DNA of 64,000 bases from Candidatus Parcubacteria bacterium (GCA_026004495.1 BPJG01000001.1:70470-134469), one strand, 5' to 3'; numbered from the stretch's first letter, positions 14,718 to 24,723 are shown. Numbers and translations are program-made. The notes: generated by a model from the sequence alone, not told the origin.

Positions 14718-15113
14718 TTAAGAATAGCTTATTTCTTTTATTTTCTTAATAATTTCTTCTAGACCTGACGATTTATAAATAATTCCTTTTAATCCTAAAG
14801 ATCTAACAAATTCATCATTTATTTCTTGACCATCATCTGTATATTTAAGGTTGGTAATAATAATAATATTAGGACATTTTGATCCCAGGTCTTTTTTAAG
14901 ATGAACCAAAAATTCTAATCCACTTATTTCCGGCATTGATATATCTAATAAAACTAAATCGGGTTTAATTTCAATTATTTTAAGTAAAGCTTCTTTGGGG
15001 TCATAAAAACATTCTATTTCGAAACCTTCTTTTTTTAGAGCAAAAGAAATTAAATCACAAAATGATTTTTCGTCATCAACTAATAATATTCTATAGGGCC
15101 TTTGTTCGGCCAT
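14718..15113 (-). CDS. Stand-alone response regulator receiver domain (CheY-like)
   Basis: ILLVDDEKSF...KPDLVLLDISMPEISG...IIIITN...K receiver motifs. 131 aa with no output domain. Confidence 0.85.
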   Translation of the reverse strand: MAEQRPYRILLVDDEKSFCDLISFALKKEGFEIECFYDPKEALLKIIEIKPDLVLLDISMPEISGLEFLVHLKKDLGSKCPNIIIITNLKYTDDGQEINDEFVRSLGLKGIIYKSSGLEEIIKKIKEISYS

Positions 15114-15271: not shown

Positions 15272-17161
15272 ATGTATAAAGAAAAAAATAAAAAAGAAAA
15301 AAGGAAAAGTGAATCAAGAAAAAAGGAAAATTTCTCTCAATTATTAAATCAAGAAATTTTGTCATTTAAAAATTTTAATGAATTCAATCCAACGCAAAAT
15401 ATTTTTGAAGTTAATTTAATGGAAAAATATATAATTAGGGAAATAAAAGGAGAAGATACTTTATTGCTAAGAAAAATTACTGATACAGAAGATTTAATCG
15501 ATGATAAAGAAACTGAAATAATCGAAGTTTTAAGTTTAAATTTTCCTGAAAGCGAAGAATACAAATTTCCAATAGAATACTGGATAAATTTATGGATAAA
15601 ATATGGCGGATGGATAGATCTTAATAATCTACCTCAAAAAAATGAGCTTTCAATAAAAGAAGCCAGAGAATTTTTTAGTAAAATTCCTTCAAAAACTGAA
15701 GTAATTTTTGATTATTATTTTTCTACTGAAGAAACATTATATAACTTTTGTAAATATAAATCCCAGCATTATTTATCAAGATATATTAGTTTCTTAAATA
15801 TCCATTTAGAAAACTTTAATTATGATATTGTAGGGATTAATTTAGATTATGAAAGATTTTTAGCCCTAAAAAGATATAAATTATTTGGCCGACCGATTCC
15901 TCTTGAAATTCTAAGCTTAGAAGAAATGAATTATTTATTAAGAAATGAAAGATTAAAAGAAGAATACCTTAGTAAAACAACAAAAAGAACATTTAATTGT
16001 GATTTAAATATACAAAATCCAACTTCAAATCAATACGCCGGAACTACAAGAATTATATATACAAAATTAAAAAATCCAGAATATTATCCTTATCACATTT
16101 TTTTAGGAAATCCTTCTGAAGAAGAAATAATAGAATATATTAAAGTATTATTAATTAAGAACTTAGTTTCATCATTTACCCAAAATCAATTTGATGAAAA
16201 TACAATAATTCAAAATTTAATTTTCAATTGTCAATTATATAAAATTTTAAAATCTGAAGATAAAATAATTCTTTTACCAACTGTTGCTACAATTCCTACA
16301 GCTTTTTTATTTAAATGGCTATTAAGGTATACAAAAAAAGAACTTATTAAAAGAGGTAGAGAAGATTTAGCAGAAAAAATTGTTATTCCTAAATTTTTAT
16401 TCATCAATAGTGAAAGTATATACTTAAGAGAAAATCTTAGTAATGAAGGAATTATGAATCAAATATTTCAAAATTTAAAAGAAGGATTAACAACTAAAAC
16501 ATTAGATGAAAAATTACAAGAACTAAAAAAAGAAATTGAAGAGAAGGGAAAAAATGAAGAAGAAAAGAAAAAATTAAATTTTTTAAAATATATTATCGAA
16601 TTTTCTTTGAATCTAAAAAAAAGATTGTATATAGTTAATAAAGAGTTATTTGATGATCTAAATATTGATAACCTAAGACAAAAATTATCAGAATTAAAAA
16701 TTTCTTTTTTAGATGATGCCACAGGAATGAAAGCTACATATTTTTTGTCCTATACATCTGCTTATTTGGCTATCTTAGATATATTAAAAGATAAACTTAA
16801 GAATGATTGGGATAAAATAAGAGATGAAATTTATGATATTTTGGAAAGGGAAATAATGCCCATTCAATTTACAGCTAATTTAGAATCATTAGATTATCAA
16901 ACTATTTATAATCAAAGTGCTAATAGATTTATTATTACAGAAAGATTGTTTATTGAATTACTTCCAATATTTAAAAGAAAAAAAGAAAAAAAGTCAGAAA
17001 ATCCAGAAATTATTTTAGAAAAACCAGATATAAAAACAGAAAAAATTTTGCACGACTTTAATACAAAAAAAATAGAAATATTAAAAGAAATATCTAAATA
17101 TTTATCTCCATTTTTAGCTGACTATATAATCACTTACCCAAATTTAGTTATCCCGAATTAA
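15272..17161 (+). CDS. Hypothetical protein (629 aa)
   Basis: Long ORF with coding-like composition. No motif recognised. Confidence 0.6.
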   Translation: MYKEKNKKEKRKSESRKKENFSQLLNQEILSFKNFNEFNPTQNIFEVNLMEKYIIREIKGEDTLLLRKITDTEDLIDDKETEIIEVLSLNFPESEEYKFPIEYWINLWIKYGGWIDLNNLPQKNELSIKEAREFFSKIPSKTEVIFDYYFSTEETLYNFCKYKSQHYLSRYISFLNIHLENFNYDIVGINLDYERFLALKRYKLFGRPIPLEILSLEEMNYLLRNERLKEEYLSKTTKRTFNCDLNIQNPTSNQYAGTTRIIYTKLKNPEYYPYHIFLGNPSEEEIIEYIKVLLIKNLVSSFTQNQFDENTIIQNLIFNCQLYKILKSEDKIILLPTVATIPTAFLFKWLLRYTKKELIKRGREDLAEKIVIPKFLFINSESIYLRENLSNEGIMNQIFQNLKEGLTTKTLDEKLQELKKEIEEKGKNEEEKKKLNFLKYIIEFSLNLKKRLYIVNKELFDDLNIDNLRQKLSELKISFLDDATGMKATYFLSYTSAYLAILDILKDKLKNDWDKIRDEIYDILEREIMPIQFTANLESLDYQTIYNQSANRFIITERLFIELLPIFKRKKEKKSENPEIILEKPDIKTEKILHDFNTKKIEILKEISKYLSPFLADYIITYPNLVIPN

Positions 17162-18715
17162 CAAGCTAACAAAAAATTTACTTCCCCTACCTTCGCCTTC
17201 TGATTCGGCCCAAATTCTGCCTTGATGAGCTTCAACTAAATTTTTAACAATATAAAGACCTAAGCCAGTACCTCTAATTTCTTTTTTAATTGAAGGATCA
17301 CGAACAAATTCACCAAAAAGCTTACTTTGTAATTCTTTTGACATTCCAATTCCAGAATCACTAACACAAATTATTAATTCATTATTTTGTTTATAAACAC
17401 TTACCTTAACCCATCCTTGAGGAGTATATTTAATAGCATTATCAATTAAATTTTGTATGACTTGAGAAAATCTTAATTTATCAACTTTCAAAATTATTTG
17501 CTCAAGATTAGTTTCAAGACTTAGCTCTAAATTCTTTTCTTTGGCTAAAATAGTAAAATTATTTAAGATTTCTTTAATCAAACTAATAATTTCAACTTCC
17601 TCAAAATTAAGGTCCATTTTACCTTCTTCAATTCGTCGATAATCCATAAATTGTTCAATTAAAACCAAAAGCTTATCAACTGAATCTTTAATTTTTTTGG
17701 CAAAATCTTTTGCTTGTTCCGGCACATTTTCAATTCCATCAGCAATTAATTCAGCATAGCCTTTAACAACAGCCATCGGTGCTTTTACCTGATGCGACGC
17801 AAACGAAAGAAACTCCGATTTAATTCTATTTAATTTTTCCAATTTTTCTCTTAATTCAACTTCTTTTCTTACAGATTGTATAGTTATTAAAGAAACAATT
17901 AATATGAAAATAAATATTATTATTCTAATTAAAATTTCGATAAAATTAATGCTTATTAATATTTGGAATGCTGTTAAAATTAATAATATACTAATTAAAA
18001 TATCAATTAAAATAAATTTAATATTTAAGAATTGATAACGAACTATTGCTAAAAAAGTAAGTAAAATTAGGGGTATAGAATATAAAATACCAAATTGAAT
18101 ATATTTAGCGTTGCCAAATACATTAGGAAATATAAAATTAAAAATTATATGTAAGGTGAAAGTAACCAAAGCTCCGATAAATATTAAGATGGCGGAATAT
18201 TTTAGATTTGTCTCTTTAACAGAATAAATTTTTTTAATAAAACCAACAAAAAAGCTAATTAACAAACCTATTGTGGTTATACCAAATAATACTATACCAA
18301 TATTAGTTTTTACGCTTCCTATAGTGCCGTCAGGTTTAAATGAAATAATTTTTTCGAAAACTAACGGCGTTAATGTGAGTATCGAAACAAAAATAGTAAG
18401 TGGTAATAAAACATATTTAAAAGTTTTAGAATAATTAAAAGAAATATTAGGAAAAGCATAATACAAATTAAATATTGAGAAAGCGTACCAAATAGCAAAA
18501 AACATGTGTATCCTTAAAAAAATAAGTGCAAGGTTATTTAAATGCGGTTGATTGTATAAAAAATTGAAAATACCCCATAAAATAGTGCTTAGACTTAAGA
18601 GTAAATATGCAAAATTAGTAGCACCTTTTCTATTTTGGTTATAAATTATAAAACCTAATACTCCCATAGCACTAGCTACCCAACCTAAGATTATAAATAT
18701 GAAATTTTGGCTCAT
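17144..18715 (-). CDS. Sensor histidine kinase with polytopic N-terminal membrane domain
   Basis: SEFLSFASHQVKAPM (H-box), NLIDNAIKYT (N-box), DSGIGM, GTGLGLYIVK (G-boxes). About 9 N-terminal TM helices. The start overlaps the stop of the upstream methyltransferase gene (ATGA). Confidence 0.9.
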   Translation of the reverse strand: MSQNFIFIILGWVASAMGVLGFIIYNQNRKGATNFAYLLLSLSTILWGIFNFLYNQPHLNNLALIFLRIHMFFAIWYAFSIFNLYYAFPNISFNYSKTFKYVLLPLTIFVSILTLTPLVFEKIISFKPDGTIGSVKTNIGIVLFGITTIGLLISFFVGFIKKIYSVKETNLKYSAILIFIGALVTFTLHIIFNFIFPNVFGNAKYIQFGILYSIPLILLTFLAIVRYQFLNIKFILIDILISILLILTAFQILISINFIEILIRIIIFIFILIVSLITIQSVRKEVELREKLEKLNRIKSEFLSFASHQVKAPMAVVKGYAELIADGIENVPEQAKDFAKKIKDSVDKLLVLIEQFMDYRRIEEGKMDLNFEEVEIISLIKEILNNFTILAKEKNLELSLETNLEQIILKVDKLRFSQVIQNLIDNAIKYTPQGWVKVSVYKQNNELIICVSDSGIGMSKELQSKLFGEFVRDPSIKKEIRGTGLGLYIVKNLVEAHQGRIWAESEGEGRGSKFFVSLLIRDN

Positions 18716-19464
18716 TTCTTTATGATTATTAAAATATACCTTGATCTGAAAGTATTTTTTAGATCTTTAAAGTCAATACCTAAATTTTTATATTTTTCTT
18801 TAATTTTTCTAGTAAGTCTTCTAATAAAGAGATAATATTTCTTGATCCCGATTTTTTTTAAAATTTTTTTTATTTCTGATGGTAAATAAGCTGCTCGAGC
18901 TGAATAATAAATTAATTTTTTACTTAGATTATCAGGCGGTATAACCATTTTTAAAAGATAATAAGGTACATCTCTTCTTAAATCTTGAATATAAATTAAA
19001 CTATTTTGTTTTGTCACCCTTAGCATTTCTTTTATTGCTTTAGAAGTATTTTTAAATTGATGCAAACTATCTTTACACACAACAATGTCAAAATAATTAT
19101 TAGGAAAATTTAATTTATGAATATCATCTGAGATAAATTTTGTATTTTTGCAACCCTTACAGTTTTTCTTTGCCAATTGAAGTGCAAATTTAGTGTTGTC
19201 TATTCCGATAATTAAAGCATTTGGAAACCTTAAAGCAAGCTCTTTGCATAAAAACCCAGGACCACAACCTACATCAAGAATTTTAATTTTTTTATTGGTA
19301 TCTATTTTTGTTTTGGCAAATTCAATTAAATTATCAACAAGCGGAATTATCCACTTTTTATAATTTATTGTTGACATTTTCTCAAATTCTTTATGCTCAT
19401 TAATACCCATTTCTTTAGGTTCGGGAATCCTCTTTTTAAAAAATAGTTTTACTTTATTACCCAT
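18712..19464 (-). CDS. Class I SAM-dependent methyltransferase
   Basis: ILDVGCGPGFL (motif I) and FDIVVCKDSLHQF. Confidence 0.8.
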   Translation of the reverse strand: MGNKVKLFFKKRIPEPKEMGINEHKEFEKMSTINYKKWIIPLVDNLIEFAKTKIDTNKKIKILDVGCGPGFLCKELALRFPNALIIGIDNTKFALQLAKKNCKGCKNTKFISDDIHKLNFPNNYFDIVVCKDSLHQFKNTSKAIKEMLRVTKQNSLIYIQDLRRDVPYYLLKMVIPPDNLSKKLIYYSARAAYLPSEIKKILKKIGIKKYYLFIRRLTRKIKEKYKNLGIDFKDLKNTFRSRYILIIIKK

Positions 19465-20987
19465 TTTTGTTTAATACCTGCCTTAAAATAAATTGGATCT
19501 TCGTAGGGGTGAAGGAAAATTTCTGGTTCTAATTGTTTTTTATATTTTTCTGAAGCCGTTGAATAAAGATGATTATATTCTGTTGAATGTTTAATTAAGG
19601 AGTTTACTACTTCTTTTTTAATTCGTTCTTTTAATTTAAAAGCCGGTTTTATATTCTTTTTCATCTCTATATGAATATGCAATTTTTGATTGTAATTTTT
19701 ATCATAGACAACTTGCATTGTAAATTTACCTGTAATATATTTTTGTAGTTCTGATTTTAATAAAGCTTGTCTAATATATTCAGGATATAAAATAATTCCA
19801 AACAAGGATACAGTAAAGTCAGATCTTTCATAAACATATACGAATGGCAATTTAAGAATTTTATCTTTTATTTTCAACTTCTCAGATTCTTTAAAGATAT
19901 CGATGCCTACTTCTTTTAATCTTTTTATCATTTCATCAAAATAAATAACCCCTCCATAATCAGGGAAACTATATCTTAGAATAGGAATTGAATCTCCATG
20001 TCCCGAGGCCAAGATTAAGCCATCTTTTTCTTCAAACCAAACAATATAAGGATGGTATTGAGCTAAAGTAGGAGTTCTGGTAGCGTCTCTAAAGAGATTT
20101 CTAAAAACTTTATCTTTTTCAACAGCAATGTGCCTTATTAGGTTGGAAAAAGCTGTTTCATGTGCCATAGTTCCAAGTTCAACTGTACCATAAATATTGA
20201 TATTATCATTAAGCATATTTTCAAGATTGACCTTATTAGCGATATACTTTCTAAAGCTTTCAGGAAAGCTTTCAGCAGCATTTAAGATTCTTATTTTGAA
20301 TTTTTTAAATTGAACCCCGGCTGATACTGCTTCGTCGACTAAATCCTTGACAGAAGGAGGATAACCAACAAGAATTATTTGATCGTAATAAAATGATAGT
20401 TTTTGGAAAGTTTTTAATATTAATTCTTTATTTACTCCTATAGGAGCAACTGTTAATGGATATTTTTCGCTGAGTCTGTAGTAAACATAATAATTATGTA
20501 ACCCCCCAATCCATATACCTAATCCAAAGCTCAAAATAACTAAAGTATTAAATTTATTAATACCCCATTGATTTAAAAAGGCAGTTTCTAGTACATACAA
20601 TCCCTGTTCATCCAAATTTTCTCCTCTAATAAAATAAAAAGGCTCACCAGTAGAGCCCGAAGTTGCTGAAATTGTTGTTAGATTTAAATTTTCATTTGGA
20701 TAGAGTTGTTGATAAGGATATTGGCGAAGATAATTATTTTTATTCATAATTGGTAATTTAGCTAAGTCTCTAAAACCAGTAATTTCTCGATAATTAATTC
20801 CATTTTCTTTTAAGAATTGTTTATAAGCTGGTGTTGTTTCAATGGTAAATTTTACTAGTCTATCTATTTGTTTTTTGCCTAAATTCAACCAATAATCAGG
20901 TGGTCGTGTTTTTAATTCCTTCAATCTTTTATCTATGTTTTTGGGATATTTAAAATATATAAATTTTTTGTCCATTATGTTTCCCAT
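19449..20987 (-). CDS. Adenylate-forming enzyme, phenylacetate-CoA ligase / F390 synthetase (PaaK/CapK-like) family
   Basis: SATSGSTGEPFYF corresponds to the TSG(T/S)TG.P AMP-binding motif of the PaaK family. The size and C-terminal lid region are consistent with that family. Confidence 0.65.
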   Translation of the reverse strand: MGNIMDKKFIYFKYPKNIDKRLKELKTRPPDYWLNLGKKQIDRLVKFTIETTPAYKQFLKENGINYREITGFRDLAKLPIMNKNNYLRQYPYQQLYPNENLNLTTISATSGSTGEPFYFIRGENLDEQGLYVLETAFLNQWGINKFNTLVILSFGLGIWIGGLHNYYVYYRLSEKYPLTVAPIGVNKELILKTFQKLSFYYDQIILVGYPPSVKDLVDEAVSAGVQFKKFKIRILNAAESFPESFRKYIANKVNLENMLNDNINIYGTVELGTMAHETAFSNLIRHIAVEKDKVFRNLFRDATRTPTLAQYHPYIVWFEEKDGLILASGHGDSIPILRYSFPDYGGVIYFDEMIKRLKEVGIDIFKESEKLKIKDKILKLPFVYVYERSDFTVSLFGIILYPEYIRQALLKSELQKYITGKFTMQVVYDKNYNQKLHIHIEMKKNIKPAFKLKERIKKEVVNSLIKHSTEYNHLYSTASEKYKKQLEPEIFLHPYEDPIYFKAGIKQKWVIK

Positions 20988-22072
20988 TGTATAAAGGGTG
21001 GTTTTTTAACCGAGATGGCCGATGGTGGATCAGCTTTTCCTATTCTCATTACTGCGGTTAAAATATAATTATTTTTATCTACTTTAAATAATTCACATAA
21101 TTTTTGATAAGAATTATTAATAATGTTTAGCTCTTCTTCATTAAAAATATTTTTGTTTCCAAAATTAGCCTGTTGCCAAAAGAAAAATATTCCTGTAATT
21201 AGATGACAAGCTAAGTTTAACTTTGTAGCTCTAAGCCAAATATTTTCTATAAGCCTACCAAGATTTATAAATTCCTTATCATTATTAATAATAGAAAAAC
21301 CAATCATTGTGTTAGTAGCTGAATACATTTTAACTGTGTCTTTATAAATAGTTCTTACGATTCCTAATTTCTTCATTAATTTAAAGAAAGTAGTATTCCT
21401 TAAAAGTTTAATCATTAATATTTGAGGTGGTTTAAACTCCATTGTTTTGATATATAATCCCCTTTCTCCCTTTTGAGCTTTTTCTTTATCAAAAATGATC
21501 TCATTAAAAAGCAATTTTCTAAGATGGTCATTGTTAAAATTCAAATAAGTGTCATAAGCCAATAAACTGCCAATTTCATTTATTAAATCACCTTCAATTA
21601 TTGAAACCTTACAATTAGAGAAAAAATTAACTTCATTTAATAAATATTTTTTTTCTTCTTCTGTTAAGGCCTCTTTTTTGTAATGGTTTCTATTGGTTGT
21701 TCTTTTTTTAATATATTCATATAAGTCATCTTTCTCTTCAACGCCTGACTTTTCTAAAATAATTGAGGCTATGATATTATTTTCAAATTTCTCATTTATT
21801 GTTATTATGGGATTTAATTTATAATGCTTGGCTGTAATTACTATATTTTCAATTAAAGCCCCACAAGCAATTAAAGTACCTCTATTATTGTAATTTAATA
21901 TTGGATGATCTTTTTCTGGTAAATATCTTATTTTTATCGTATTTTGAGAAGCAATAAATTCCCATGGTTGAGAATTGCTTCCAGATGGAGCATTTAAGCT
22001 TTCTTTTAAAATATTTTCTATTAAAGATTTTTCAGGCATTTTTATTAATAATATTTTACAGCATATAATCAA
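20975..22072 (-). CDS. Double-domain nitroreductase-family protein
   Basis: NAPSGSNSQPWEF is the nitroreductase signature. A second lobe follows at about residues 200-365. The likely true start is MPEKSL at 22039. Confidence 0.7.
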   Translation of the reverse strand: MIICCKILLIKMPEKSLIENILKESLNAPSGSNSQPWEFIASQNTIKIRYLPEKDHPILNYNNRGTLIACGALIENIVITAKHYKLNPIITINEKFENNIIASIILEKSGVEEKDDLYEYIKKRTTNRNHYKKEALTEEEKKYLLNEVNFFSNCKVSIIEGDLINEIGSLLAYDTYLNFNNDHLRKLLFNEIIFDKEKAQKGERGLYIKTMEFKPPQILMIKLLRNTTFFKLMKKLGIVRTIYKDTVKMYSATNTMIGFSIINNDKEFINLGRLIENIWLRATKLNLACHLITGIFFFWQQANFGNKNIFNEEELNIINNSYQKLCELFKVDKNNYILTAVMRIGKADPPSAISVKKPPFIQWET

Positions 22073-22075
22073 TAT

Positions 22076-23188
22076 TTACAATTTTTTTAATTTTTTGAGG
22101 AAATATTTTTGTTGTTTTTTAAAATCTTTAGGTAAAATCGATAACATTTTATCAATATTTAATAAAATTCTTCCTTCTTTAATTTTTCCACCAAGAATAA
22201 TTTTTTTTGATAAATAAGAAACAGCTACACCGCATAAAGTTGCAGCATTACCTAATTGTGGCCAAGAATAAATTGTTTTTCCAACTTCTATTAATGAATA
22301 TAACATTCTTGGCGTTGCTAAATTAGCGCCTGCAATTTTGGCTGTAATCTTTATCATATCTTGAGGATTTAAATTTTTTAGATTTTCGGAAGATAAATTT
22401 CCCAAAAGACCATGAAGAATAGGATAATTAGGATTTAAATCGTATCTTTCGATGTCAATTAAAATATTATCGGCATGGTCTGTTGCCATAATTACAGGAA
22501 TTCTATATTTTTTAGCTTTCTCTCTTATTTTTATTTTGAGATAGAGATTATCCATTTCTTCAATTAAAACATCAATTTTAGGTTTAAGTAAAAAATTATC
22601 TATATTTTTATAAGTAATACCTTCTGAATAAATTTTCAAGCTTGCATAAGGATTTATTTCATAAATTTGTTGAGCACAATAAATTGCTTTATTAATTCCA
22701 ATCGACGAAATAGGATAACGTAATCTATTTAAATTAGATAAAGAAATTTCATCATTATCAGCTATTTTCATATATCTAGCTCCACCTATCATTGCGAGTG
22801 TTAAGGCTATATGAGAACCCACACTAAGACCTGCTATCCCTATTCTTGATTTATAAAACTTTATTTGTTCATCTTTGGTTAGAAGGTAAATATTTCTCGC
22901 AGTTTTAGTTTCAAAAAATTCTTTTTCATCTAAACAGTGAATTAATTTTTTATTCCAGGGGAAATATATCCATTTACCAACTTTATCTAATGTTTTATTT
23001 TTTAATTTTTTCTTTAAAAAATTTTCAAAATCTTGTTGATATTCTTTGATAAATTTATATTTAGGATTTTTAATTAAAAAATAATCTTCTAATTGTTTTT
23101 CGTAATTATCTATGATTTCTGATGGGTTTAATCTCTTTTTTAATAGCTCTAAACTTATATGATGAGCGTTAAAAATTAATGGCTTCAT
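22076..23188 (-). CDS. ThiF/E1-like adenylyltransferase with a roughly 110-aa N-terminal extension
   Basis: RIGIAGLSVGSHIALTLAMIGG...MKIADNDEISLSNLNRL (Rossmann motif plus the D.D....NL.R E1 motif). No CxxC zinc pairs were seen. Confidence 0.75.
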   Translation of the reverse strand: MKPLIFNAHHISLELLKKRLNPSEIIDNYEKQLEDYFLIKNPKYKFIKEYQQDFENFLKKKLKNKTLDKVGKWIYFPWNKKLIHCLDEKEFFETKTARNIYLLTKDEQIKFYKSRIGIAGLSVGSHIALTLAMIGGARYMKIADNDEISLSNLNRLRYPISSIGINKAIYCAQQIYEINPYASLKIYSEGITYKNIDNFLLKPKIDVLIEEMDNLYLKIKIREKAKKYRIPVIMATDHADNILIDIERYDLNPNYPILHGLLGNLSSENLKNLNPQDMIKITAKIAGANLATPRMLYSLIEVGKTIYSWPQLGNAATLCGVAVSYLSKKIILGGKIKEGRILLNIDKMLSILPKDFKKQQKYFLKKLKKL

Positions 23189-23427
23189 TGTCTAATTTGA
23201 ATATTATTTTAAATTATATCACAATCAATATAGTTTTTAAAAAATTATTTATTTTTTACTTATTTATTTCTCAATTTCTTAAGAAATTAAGAAAAACAAA
23301 ATTTTCTAATTTAATACATACGATGTCTTATTAATTTTTTTCATTATTCATCTCTATAGCAGAAAATAATGAAAATGCTTTGGAGTTTTGGAAAAATAAT
23401 AAAAACTTTGAATAAGGAGGTAAGACC

Positions 23428-23658
23428 ATGAGAGCCGTTCGAGTTGAAGAGCTAGAAATAATTTGTCACGAAGTAAGGCGCCGGATGTTCCAAACCATCC
23501 TCAATGCGGGAAGCGGTCATCTCTGTAGTTCGTCTTCCTCTGTGGAATGCATTTTTAGAAGTCTACAGAAATTTATAAATCTATATGTCTTCTGTTTAAT
23601 TTGTTTTGGTAATGTAAAATCCCATTCAGAATCTATACCCGGAGAACTGAAAGTATAA
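23428..23658 (+). pseudogene. Transketolase N-terminal fragment (only about 45 homologous residues)
   Basis: A strong SD (aaggagg, 23415-23421) precedes the ATG. MRAVRVEELEIICHEVRRRMFQTILNAGSGHLCSSSSSVECI resembles the transketolase ...R..I..M...AGSGH.GGSLS.VE.. motif. Homology is lost after about 23560. GC is much higher than in the flanks. Confidence 0.55.
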
Positions 23659-24723
23659 AGAAGTGATAGTCTGCTGTTTATAGAACTAGTAATTTCAAGA
23701 AGATGAGATAGAGTCATCCCATATCCGATAGAAGCAGAAACTGGTTTCTGGCTATTGTAATTGATCCCAAAAAGAAGTATTCTGCTGTCGATAAATTGTG
23801 TGGTAGTAAAATTGCTTCCGTGTATATTCTTTTGCCTACCCAGTTTTGTAGATGCCTCTCGACAAAAAATATATCAACGGCTAAAATTTATTGCTAAATT
23901 GAATAAAGCTCGTTGGCAATTGATGAAACCTTTTCATTTGGGTTTTTTATTTTGTGTAAAAACTCCTTGAAAACACCTCGCGCATTTGACTGATTGATTT
24001 CTAAATTTTTTAAGTAAGGGTATATTGCATTAAAAATACTAAGAAATTCTGAGTCAAACATTTGATCTATAACGCGGTCGCTCATGTTTGTACCAATTCA
24101 ATTATATCTCTCAAATGACCATTCGTCGTCTAGTTTTTCTAATGAGTCAGCAACCATGGCTTTTGCACCTGGAGGCGAAAATTTTTTTCATTTAGTTGCT
24201 TTACAGCTGGATCTTTGAATAACGGGTTAGGATAATTTAATGATTTTTCTCCGTTATGTTTAACGATAAATCTTTTCTCCTTGTAGATATCAAAGACCGA
24301 ACGAACGAATTCCTGATACAATTTGTTGTTTGTATTGAAGTAATTGTCGTAATCACAGCTTATCTGAATACTTTTCAAATCTTTCAGAATTACATCGCTA
24401 AAATAATTCAGAACGCTTATTGGTTCAGTAAATTTATACAAGTGACTTTTCGGGATCTTATAAAAATTGAAAATAAGATCTAATGTTCTTTGATCTGTAT
24501 CATTTAGTTTTCGTTTTTGTAGAAAATTTGATACTGCATTGGCAATTTTAAAAACGGTAGAACCGCTATAATGCATGCAAATTGGGAATCGAACAGAAAA
24601 TCCCTGTTTTCGTTTCCATCTAGCCCAAACGTCAGCCAATACAAAAATCCTTGCATGACTTAAACTCAGCGGGCACACCGGATGCATGTGAGCAATATCA
24701 ATAAAATATTTTTTATCTTCCAT
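23517..24723 (-). pseudogene. Class I aaRS-like (archaeal/eukaryal LeuRS-like N-terminus) gene, degenerate HIGH motif, broken downstream
   Basis: The 24139-24723 ORF reads FIDIAHMHPVCPLSLSHARIFVLADVWARWKRKQGFSVRFPICMHYSGSTV, matching P..sG.lH.GH.R.y...Dv.aR..R..G..V.FP...H.tG.p. Two in-frame TAG codons lie at 24139 and 24130. Frame changes follow, leaving pieces at 23894-24085 and 23517-23717. Confidence 0.5.

Follow-up and report, generated by a model that had tools for sequence, protein, structure and literature searches.

A conserved Patescibacteria gene module related to the oxazolone synthase TrzS and coupled to a sensor histidine kinase

An operon of five minus-strand genes was studied in a stretch of 64,000 nucleotides (nt) from a Candidatus Parcubacteria bacterium (GCA_026004495.1, BPJG01000001.1:70470-134469), called here the window, with positions counted from its first letter. 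The operon spans 17144-23188 and encodes, in order of transcription, a ThiF-like protein (ThiF; 22076-23188), a two-lobed nitroreductase-fold flavin-dependent oxidase (FDO) referred to as the nitroreductase (NTR; 20975-22072), a PaaK-fold adenylate-forming ligase (LIG; 19449-20987), a class I S-adenosylmethionine-dependent methyltransferase (MT; 18712-19464), and a sensor histidine kinase (HK; 17144-18715). By homology, ThiF is a predicted E1-like, ATP-dependent cyclodehydratase that corresponds to the N-terminal half of the oxazolone synthase TrzS (Rv1355c) of Mycobacterium tuberculosis, and NTR corresponds to its C-terminal half. LIG, ThiF, NTR, and HK form a near-universal, translationally coupled module in the retrieved loci of Patescibacteria (Candidate Phyla Radiation, CPR), with LIG as its signature partner. 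On balance, and with modest confidence, we favour the interpretation of the operon as an oxazolone-type pathway for a small molecule, coupled with a two-component sensor of its own.

Relationship of ThiF and NTR to the Rv1355c Family

The ThiF protein of the window is 100% identical to the Candidatus Parcubacteria metagenome-assembled genome (MAG) protein with locus tag KatS3mg094_088, encoded on a 634-kb contig. An initial annotation, made from the sequence of the window, had described ThiF as an adenylation core with an N-terminal extension and NTR as a two-lobed nitroreductase, and had proposed that the two genes are a split form of the Rv1355c fusion protein. All three descriptions are borne out. 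Domain PF00899 lies at ThiF residues 98-235, after a domain of about 100 amino acids (aa), and NTR matches an Acg-family model at residues 22-294 (E 5e-28). In the NCBIfam equivalog model of the Rv1355c family (NF005901, 722 positions), positions 36-349 match ThiF residues 23-359 (E 3.5e-97, 326.4 bits), and positions 372-713 match NTR residues 13-358 (E 7e-42, 143.5 bits). BLASTP gave the same collinear arrangement when the reference was a plasmid-encoded protein of Mycobacterium dioxanotrophicus that PGAP assigns to the Rv1355c family; its residues 24-329 align with ThiF (35% identity over 310 aa) and its residues 360-647 with NTR (21% identity, E 2e-24). The alignments begin at ThiF residue 23 with NF005901 and at residue 38 with BLAST and thus take in part of the N-terminal extension, which argues that this extension is a feature of the Rv1355c family. 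Adenylation motifs and flavin-site motifs are kept across the ThiF and NTR orthologs, including the NTR motifs APSGdNsQPW and R.tNRk.y, which are kept in 68 sequences.

In three CPR loci (L049, L056, and L079), ThiF and NTR are fused into one protein that aligns end to end with NF005901. The fused forms score 442-452 bits against this model, compared with 1010 bits for an actinobacterial member, and neither they nor the split genes of the window, at the scores given above, reach the curated equivalog cut-off of 476 bits. Judged by sequence, ThiF and NTR are thus most closely related to the Rv1355c family but fall short of an equivalog by the NCBI threshold. Other models for ThiF-FDO fusions or stand-alone ThiF proteins (PRK14851, PRK14852, and PRK08223) gave only 48-68 bits with the window ThiF, versus 326 bits for Rv1355c.

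The function of Rv1355c, given as unknown in the initial annotation, has since been assigned, and the protein is now named TrzS, an N-acyl tryptazolone (oxazolone) synthase (PMC12856293). Its ThiF-like domain carries out the ATP-dependent cyclisation of N-acyl-tryptophan, its FDO domain carries out the O2-dependent desaturation that yields N-acyl tryptazolone, and its substrate comes from the acyltransferase TrzA (Rv1356c), in a pathway of Mycobacterium and Rhodococcus reported in JBC in 2025 (PMC12856293). Related pathways are OxzAB, the tyrazolone pathway of Pseudoalteromonas rubra (bioRxiv 10.1101/2020.06.11.147165), and TyzACB of M. tuberculosis (Rv2336-2338c), in which separate TyzB and TyzC enzymes act with TyzA (PMC10404671). 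The chemistry of TrzS, TyzBC, and OxzB is experimentally established (PMC12856293, PMC10404671, bioRxiv 10.1101/2020.06.11.147165).

The window operon and the TrzS/TrzA system agree in their two catalytic domains and in the order of these, a cyclase with an N-terminal extension followed by a two-lobed FDO; the Rv1355c model is the best family match for both window genes, and fused forms also occur in CPR. However, the two activities reside in one polypeptide in TrzS and in two genes in the window, and the window operon has no TrzA-type acyltransferase, the PaaK-fold ligase being the invariant partner instead. The CPR module also differs in being co-transcribed with a seven-transmembrane (7TM) histidine kinase, with a methyltransferase or dehydrogenase as an optional member, and in belonging to Patescibacteria rather than Actinomycetota. 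With TyzACB and OxzAB the module shares the same logic, in which an N-acyl amino acid undergoes cyclodehydration and then desaturation, and TyzB and TyzC, like the window proteins, are a cyclase and an oxidase working separately. In contrast, those pathways use an acyl-CoA-dependent N-acyltransferase and have no linked sensor kinase. A link of oxazolones or of this gene set to Patescibacteria was not found in the searched literature.

In M. tuberculosis, trzAS is flanked by cyclic-di-GMP genes (PMC12856293), a setting echoed in a Rhodococcus plasmid, where a GGDEF-domain gene (L083, 1808-2788) is located close to the Rv1355c-family gene. A candidate TrzA beside the Rhodococcus gene gave no Pfam match and was not relied on.

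Conservation of the Module across Patescibacteria

One genome per species was scanned with ThiF, which retrieved 112 loci, and the best 80 of these were analysed by tblastn and clustering of open reading frames (ORFs). Nearly all 80 are labelled as Patescibacteria, among them Paceibacterota, Wolfe-, Kaiser-, Lipton-, Nealson-, Doudna-, Magasanikbacteria, and others, and the few MAGs that are labelled otherwise show unchanged synteny. LIG was found beside ThiF in 73 loci, nearly all loci have NTR, and in 68 NTR is followed by an HK ortholog that matches over its full length, transmembrane (TM) domain included. The coupling to a sensor kinase, which the initial annotation had considered unusual, is thus real and conserved. 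LIG-ThiF-NTR-HK is the gene order found most often (21 loci), followed by AADH-LIG-ThiF-NTR-HK (17 loci), where AADH denotes a leucine/tryptophan-dehydrogenase-like protein; the other loci contain response-regulator variants, rearrangements, or modules that end at a contig end. The median gaps of -4 nt (LIG-ThiF), +3 nt (ThiF-NTR), and +4 nt (NTR-HK), found in loci whose GC content ranges from 26 to 58%, show that the gene packing is not a matter of chance.

The initial annotation had grouped ThiF, NTR, LIG, and MT as the enzymes of one pathway. Their co-occurrence in other genomes holds for LIG, ThiF, and NTR, together with the kinase, but not for the methyltransferase, which was found in this operon position only in L074 and L077, two of the 80 loci, and in two close relatives of the window genome, L085 and L089. 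MT, which matches the families Methyltransf_31/11/25 (E 1e-28), is proposed to be an accessory tailoring enzyme of some lineages only. The expectation that such a pathway would be out of place in a reduced genome was not upheld, as the module is conserved across Patescibacteria and is not an oddity of this organism.

AADH is present in 35 of the 80 loci (44%), either in the operon or fused to LIG, and belongs to the Glu/Leu/Phe/Val-dehydrogenase family, with leucine and tryptophan dehydrogenases as its nearest members. When LIG was used in an exhaustive HMMER search, 420 clusters (at 50% identity) passed E<=1e-30, and some longer proteins among them were resolved by Pfam as fusions, namely AADH-LIG-ThiF (P0314, 1242 aa), AADH-LIG (P0282), LIG-ThiF (P0261), and ThiF-LIG (P0318). 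As P0314 was deposited from two and P0282 from four independent MAGs, these proteins are unlikely to be assembly artefacts. Together, these proteins and the ThiF-NTR fusions connect the four enzymes LIG, AADH, ThiF, and NTR as members of one pathway.

In L016, L048, L053, L069, and other loci, the module is flanked by GrpE-DnaK-DnaJ upstream and TrpRS-AspRS downstream, and these conserved housekeeping flanks suggest long vertical inheritance. The context of the module in the window genome is different and rearranged in comparison with this setting.

The PaaK-Fold Ligase as a Candidate Source of N-Acyl Amino Acids

LIG had initially been annotated as PaaK-like, which is correct with regard to its fold and adenylation motifs but does not extend to membership of the PaaK equivalog TIGR02155 (53.8 bits versus a cut-off of 646). 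In a Foldseek search with its AlphaFold (AF2) model (predicted local distance difference test score, 86.7), the best matches were PaaK1/2 and BT_0428 (E ~1e-21 to 1e-19; PaaK1, E 3e-21, probability 1.0), and further matches included 2-hydroxyisobutyryl-CoA ligase (HCL), NatL2, and ClxA, all matches falling between E 1e-21 and 1e-13 with 13-16% identity. The motifs TSGSTGeP, YGT..G, and the C-terminal KQKW are kept across 67 orthologs.

NatL2 and ClxA are PaaK-family AMP ligases of benzoxazole biosynthesis that form ester or amide bonds straight from the adenylate without coenzyme A (CoA) (PMC7204872, PMC9400959, PMC12519233). They have a common fold with LIG (Foldseek E 6e-16 to 6e-14) and offer a precedent for CoA-independent, ATP-dependent bond formation that feeds heterocycle assembly. 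However, they share only 14-16% identity with LIG, which exceeds them in length by about 80 aa; their substrates are aminohydroxybenzoates, and no amidohydrolase partner accompanies LIG. An N-acyltransferase of the OxzA/TyzA/TrzA type was not among the conserved neighbours in the 80 loci. Given this absence and the CoA-independent relatives NatL2 and ClxA, LIG most likely supplies the N-acyl amino acid in place of the missing N-acyltransferase. The occurrence of AADH in the operon or fused to LIG suggests that LIG is fed by a pair of 2-oxo acid and amino acid.

The Sensor Kinase, Its Receiver, and a FeeM-Like Neighbouring Module

HK consists of about eight TM segments, as judged by hydropathy, followed by the Pfam domains HisKA and HATPase_c. 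The TM region carries the conserved motifs LTPLVF, NGPGI, FNFILP, and YAI.RH.LL. Its N-terminal 297 aa gave no Pfam match even at E<=10, PF16927 (HisKA_7TM) included, and pairwise BLAST of the sensor against paralogs was weak (E 0.06 and 9e-7). At the profile level, an hhalign comparison of 57 sensor sequences with three PF16927-bearing paralogs gave a probability of 99.4% (E 2e-21, 253 columns), a score that TM composition may inflate. This profile-level homology suggests that the sensor is a divergent HisKA_7TM-like domain.

The stand-alone receiver noted in the initial annotation at 14718-15113 (minus strand) was recovered as a CheY-like single-domain response regulator (RR; 131 aa; Response_reg, E 9e-19). 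It is the sole receiver, and HK the sole kinase, detected in the 64-kb window, where the two are parted by a gene on the opposite strand. Among the 80 loci, a homologous single-domain receiver is found at most 7 kb from the module in 25, often directly adjacent. RR is thus the probable partner of HK.

The closest relative genome, L085, encodes a ThiF with 76% identity to that of the window and has the same gene order, MT included. Just upstream lies a second module, composed of a methyltransferase, a FeeM/Autoinducer-synthase-like N-acyl amino acid synthase, a HisKA_7TM kinase, a receiver, and a DHO_dh-like protein, in which the start of the kinase overlaps the stop of the synthase by 4 nt. 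Such FeeM/LuxI-like modules were located in L085 (4561-9227), L087 (7276-12773), L088 (4472-10358), and L089 (37-2887). The synthase has only seven detectable homologs, and in the four whose contexts were read, a HisKA_7TM kinase comes next in three (the query's own locus L085, L087, and L088), and in L089 the synthase stands directly upstream of ThiF-NTR-LIG-MT-HK. The FeeM-like module is found beside the ThiF operon in L085 and L089, and it is preceded by a PlsC-type acyltransferase in L085 and L088. The PF16927-bearing paralogs of the hhalign comparison are kinases of these modules. Two distinct enzyme sets that are expected to yield N-acylated amino acid derivatives are thus each tied to a kinase with a related sensor, and this is the main support, of a circumstantial kind, for a product-sensing role of HK.

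Synthase-receptor signalling operons such as LuxM/LuxN or Agr resemble the module in that genes which make, or in the module would make, a small N-acylated molecule derived from an amino acid share a transcript with genes for a polytopic membrane histidine kinase and a response regulator. They differ from it in that the synthases are not homologous, the sensor of the module is HisKA_7TM-like, its receiver has no DNA-binding output, and the relation between ligand and receptor is putative here.

Proposed Pathway and Alternative Explanations

In the proposed pathway, LIG would activate a carboxylic acid as an acyl-adenylate and join it to an amino-acid amine, so that an N-acyl amino acid results, and would in this way stand in for the absent OxzA/TyzA/TrzA N-acyltransferase. 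By analogy with its homolog TrzS, ThiF would then adenylate the amino-acid carboxylate and cyclodehydrate the compound to an oxazol-5(4H)-one, which NTR, a homolog of the TrzS and TyzC oxidases, would desaturate between C-alpha and C-beta to a conjugated oxazolone. MT may tailor the substrate or the product in this lineage, and the 8-TM HK, together with the stand-alone RR, could sense the product, its precursor, or the effect of the product on the membrane. As RR has no DNA-binding domain, the output would presumably not be transcriptional.

Several points weigh against this interpretation. The scores fall just under the Rv1355c equivalog cut-off, and the substrate may therefore differ, and the product in CPR members is predicted from homology only. 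Amide formation is inferred for LIG, whose top-scoring solved relatives are CoA ligases with 13-16% identity. The desaturation by TrzS requires O2, and many CPR habitats are anoxic. HK could be merely co-regulated, or could sense the state of the membrane and not the product. Finally, searches of the window for homologs of AADH and of the FeeM-like synthase found neither. A further-reaching proposal, put forward tentatively and as possible rather than probable, is that LIG-ThiF-NTR-HK(-RR) constitutes a self-contained chemical signalling circuit native to Patescibacteria, in which an oxazolone-type autoinducer, formed out of an acid plus an amino acid with no need for CoA, has the co-translated 7TM kinase as its receptor.

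The strongest rival explanation is a role in membrane aminolipid synthesis or lipid remodelling, in which LIG would activate scavenged fatty acids, the products would be N-acyl amino acid or oxazolone lipids of the envelope, and HK would monitor the membrane. Mycobacterial oxazolones have been described as lipids and tryptazolones as cell-associated (PMC10404671, PMC12856293), and an envelope-lipid role has been proposed for the tyrazolones of M. tuberculosis. The sensor of HK is wholly membrane-embedded, and in L085 and L088 the FeeM-like module also contains a methyltransferase and a PlsC-type acyltransferase, an arrangement reminiscent of OlsB/OlsA aminolipid synthesis. In addition, LuxE-type fatty-acid activation relies on the same ligase superfamily. 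However, the same chemistry fits a diffusible signal, the translational coupling of a kinase to biosynthesis is more typical of synthase-receptor pairs, and the dehydrogenase fused to LIG speaks for short 2-oxo or amino acids and against fatty acids; a membrane-lipid role is accordingly considered unlikely. The initial annotation had instead looked to pathways of ribosomally synthesized and post-translationally modified peptides (RiPPs) or nucleotide-peptides. In a RiPP-like system, or one that modifies protein C-termini, the E1-like enzyme would adenylate the carboxylate of a peptide or protein, the flavoenzyme would oxidise it, and LIG and MT would tailor it. E1-like enzymes with N-terminal recognition domains, such as MccB and PaaA, do act on peptides (PMC12596934), and the N-terminal alpha/beta domain of ThiF, of about 100 aa, is confidently predicted. 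This domain is nevertheless common to TrzS, a small-molecule enzyme, and its predicted topology (b-a-b-a-a-b-b-a) contrasts with the order bbb-aaa of PqqD-like RiPP recognition elements. No conserved small ORF (15-69 aa) was found in the module or at <=800 nt from it in the 80 loci, and the gaps between genes, mostly <=10 nt, leave no intergenic room for one. The SagB-type model TIGR03605 had no match at E<=0.01 in an NCBIfam search of the window proteins, and a YcaO-like family was not among the conserved neighbours of the 80 loci. The peptide-modification proposal is thus unsupported and appears improbable.

A housekeeping function, either TcdA-like formation of ct6A in tRNA or sulfur-carrier activation of the MoeB/ThiF type, is rated as highly improbable. 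Sequence and structure searches do match TcdA and ThiF/MoeB, some homologs have been named tRNA threonylcarbamoyladenosine dehydratase by JGI, and the module is often located among DnaK/DnaJ/GrpE, TrpRS, and AspRS genes. Against this, the best ThiF, MoeB, and TcdA models gave 31-76 bits versus cut-offs of 152-376, scores that are 4-10 times lower than that of Rv1355c. The ThiF sequence has no CxxC zinc motifs, and no ThiS/MoaD-like (ubiquitin-like) partner is conserved near the module among the neighbour families and small ORFs of the 80 loci. The possibility that ThiF is a sulfur-carrier activator, which the initial annotation had kept in view, can on these grounds be set aside; moreover, the obligate partnership with a flavoenzyme, a ligase, and a kinase would be left unexplained.

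An oxazolone-type pathway in these bacteria would be of interest in several respects. The discovery of oxazolone synthetases dates from 2021, and characterisation of the M. tuberculosis enzymes followed in 2023-2025. The physiological role of oxazolones is regarded by the authors of the TrzS study as a major unresolved question; their resemblance to signalling molecules has been noted, and they are suspected to act as signals (PMC12856293). In the retrieved Patescibacteria loci, the enzyme pair usually stands directly before a membrane sensor kinase, which offers a concrete candidate for a receptor. CPR bacteria, with genomes of about 0.6 Mb and scant biosynthesis, keep this multi-enzyme small-molecule pathway across widely diverged lineages, which argues that it is important to their life as symbionts. 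An ATP-dependent ligase in the place of an acyl-CoA-dependent transferase, if true, would be a new route to N-acyl amino acids and oxazolones. If the signalling circuit were also true, it would comprise the first oxazolone receptor and, for these episymbionts, the first description of an endogenous signal together with its sensor, and its CheY-like output could control behaviour such as attachment to a host.

Gene Junctions and Genomic Surroundings of the Operon

The window is very AT-rich, with a GC content of about 24%. ORFs and junctions read from its sequence agree with the initial description of five abutting or overlapping minus-strand genes. The ThiF stop codon (TAA) occupies 22078-22076, and NTR could start either at TTG 22072, which leaves a gap of 3 nt, or at ATG 22039, which leaves a gap of 36 nt. 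The latter is probably the true start, since conservation among orthologs begins only at about residue 18. The NTR stop codon lies at 20977-20975, and LIG may begin at ATG 20987, with an overlap of 13 nt, or at ATG 20975, with an overlap of 1 nt (TAATG); the NCBI protein of 508 aa corresponds to a start at this second ATG. LIG and MT overlap by 16 nt (19449-19464), and MT and HK by 4 nt (ATGA, 18712-18715).

A promoter-like site, TTTAAA-17-TG-TATAAT, is located on the minus strand at 23213-23241, 25 nt upstream of the ThiF start. With 10 of 12 matching positions and an extended -10 element, it is the top minus-strand match and plausible as the promoter of the operon, although shuffled sequences gave at least as many matches in total in a promoter scan of the region, so that the evidence taken alone is weak. 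No Rfam match was obtained at E<=0.1 between 14000 and 26500, and hence no riboswitch or other RNA element was found there. A PADLOC search gave generic E1 similarity of <=30 bits and one methyltransferase match, and no known defence system.

Directly upstream of the operon, a 194-aa ORF on the minus strand (24139-24723) has a match confined to the ~150 N-terminal residues of archaeal-type leucyl-tRNA synthetases (E 1.6e-26 to positions 31-176 of the 946 in NF008957). Frame-shifted fragments follow in the next 950 nt (23189-24139) and include a KMHST stretch similar to the motif KMSKS. A leucyl-tRNA synthetase gene thus seems to have been truncated or to have decayed here. On the other side of the operon, a plus-strand ORF of 629 aa (15272-17161) is convergent with the HK gene, with a 3' overlap of 18 nt. 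It has no family match, and the sole homolog detected (L088, 2238-4163) shows 35% identity and is located upstream of the FeeM-like synthase module of that genome.

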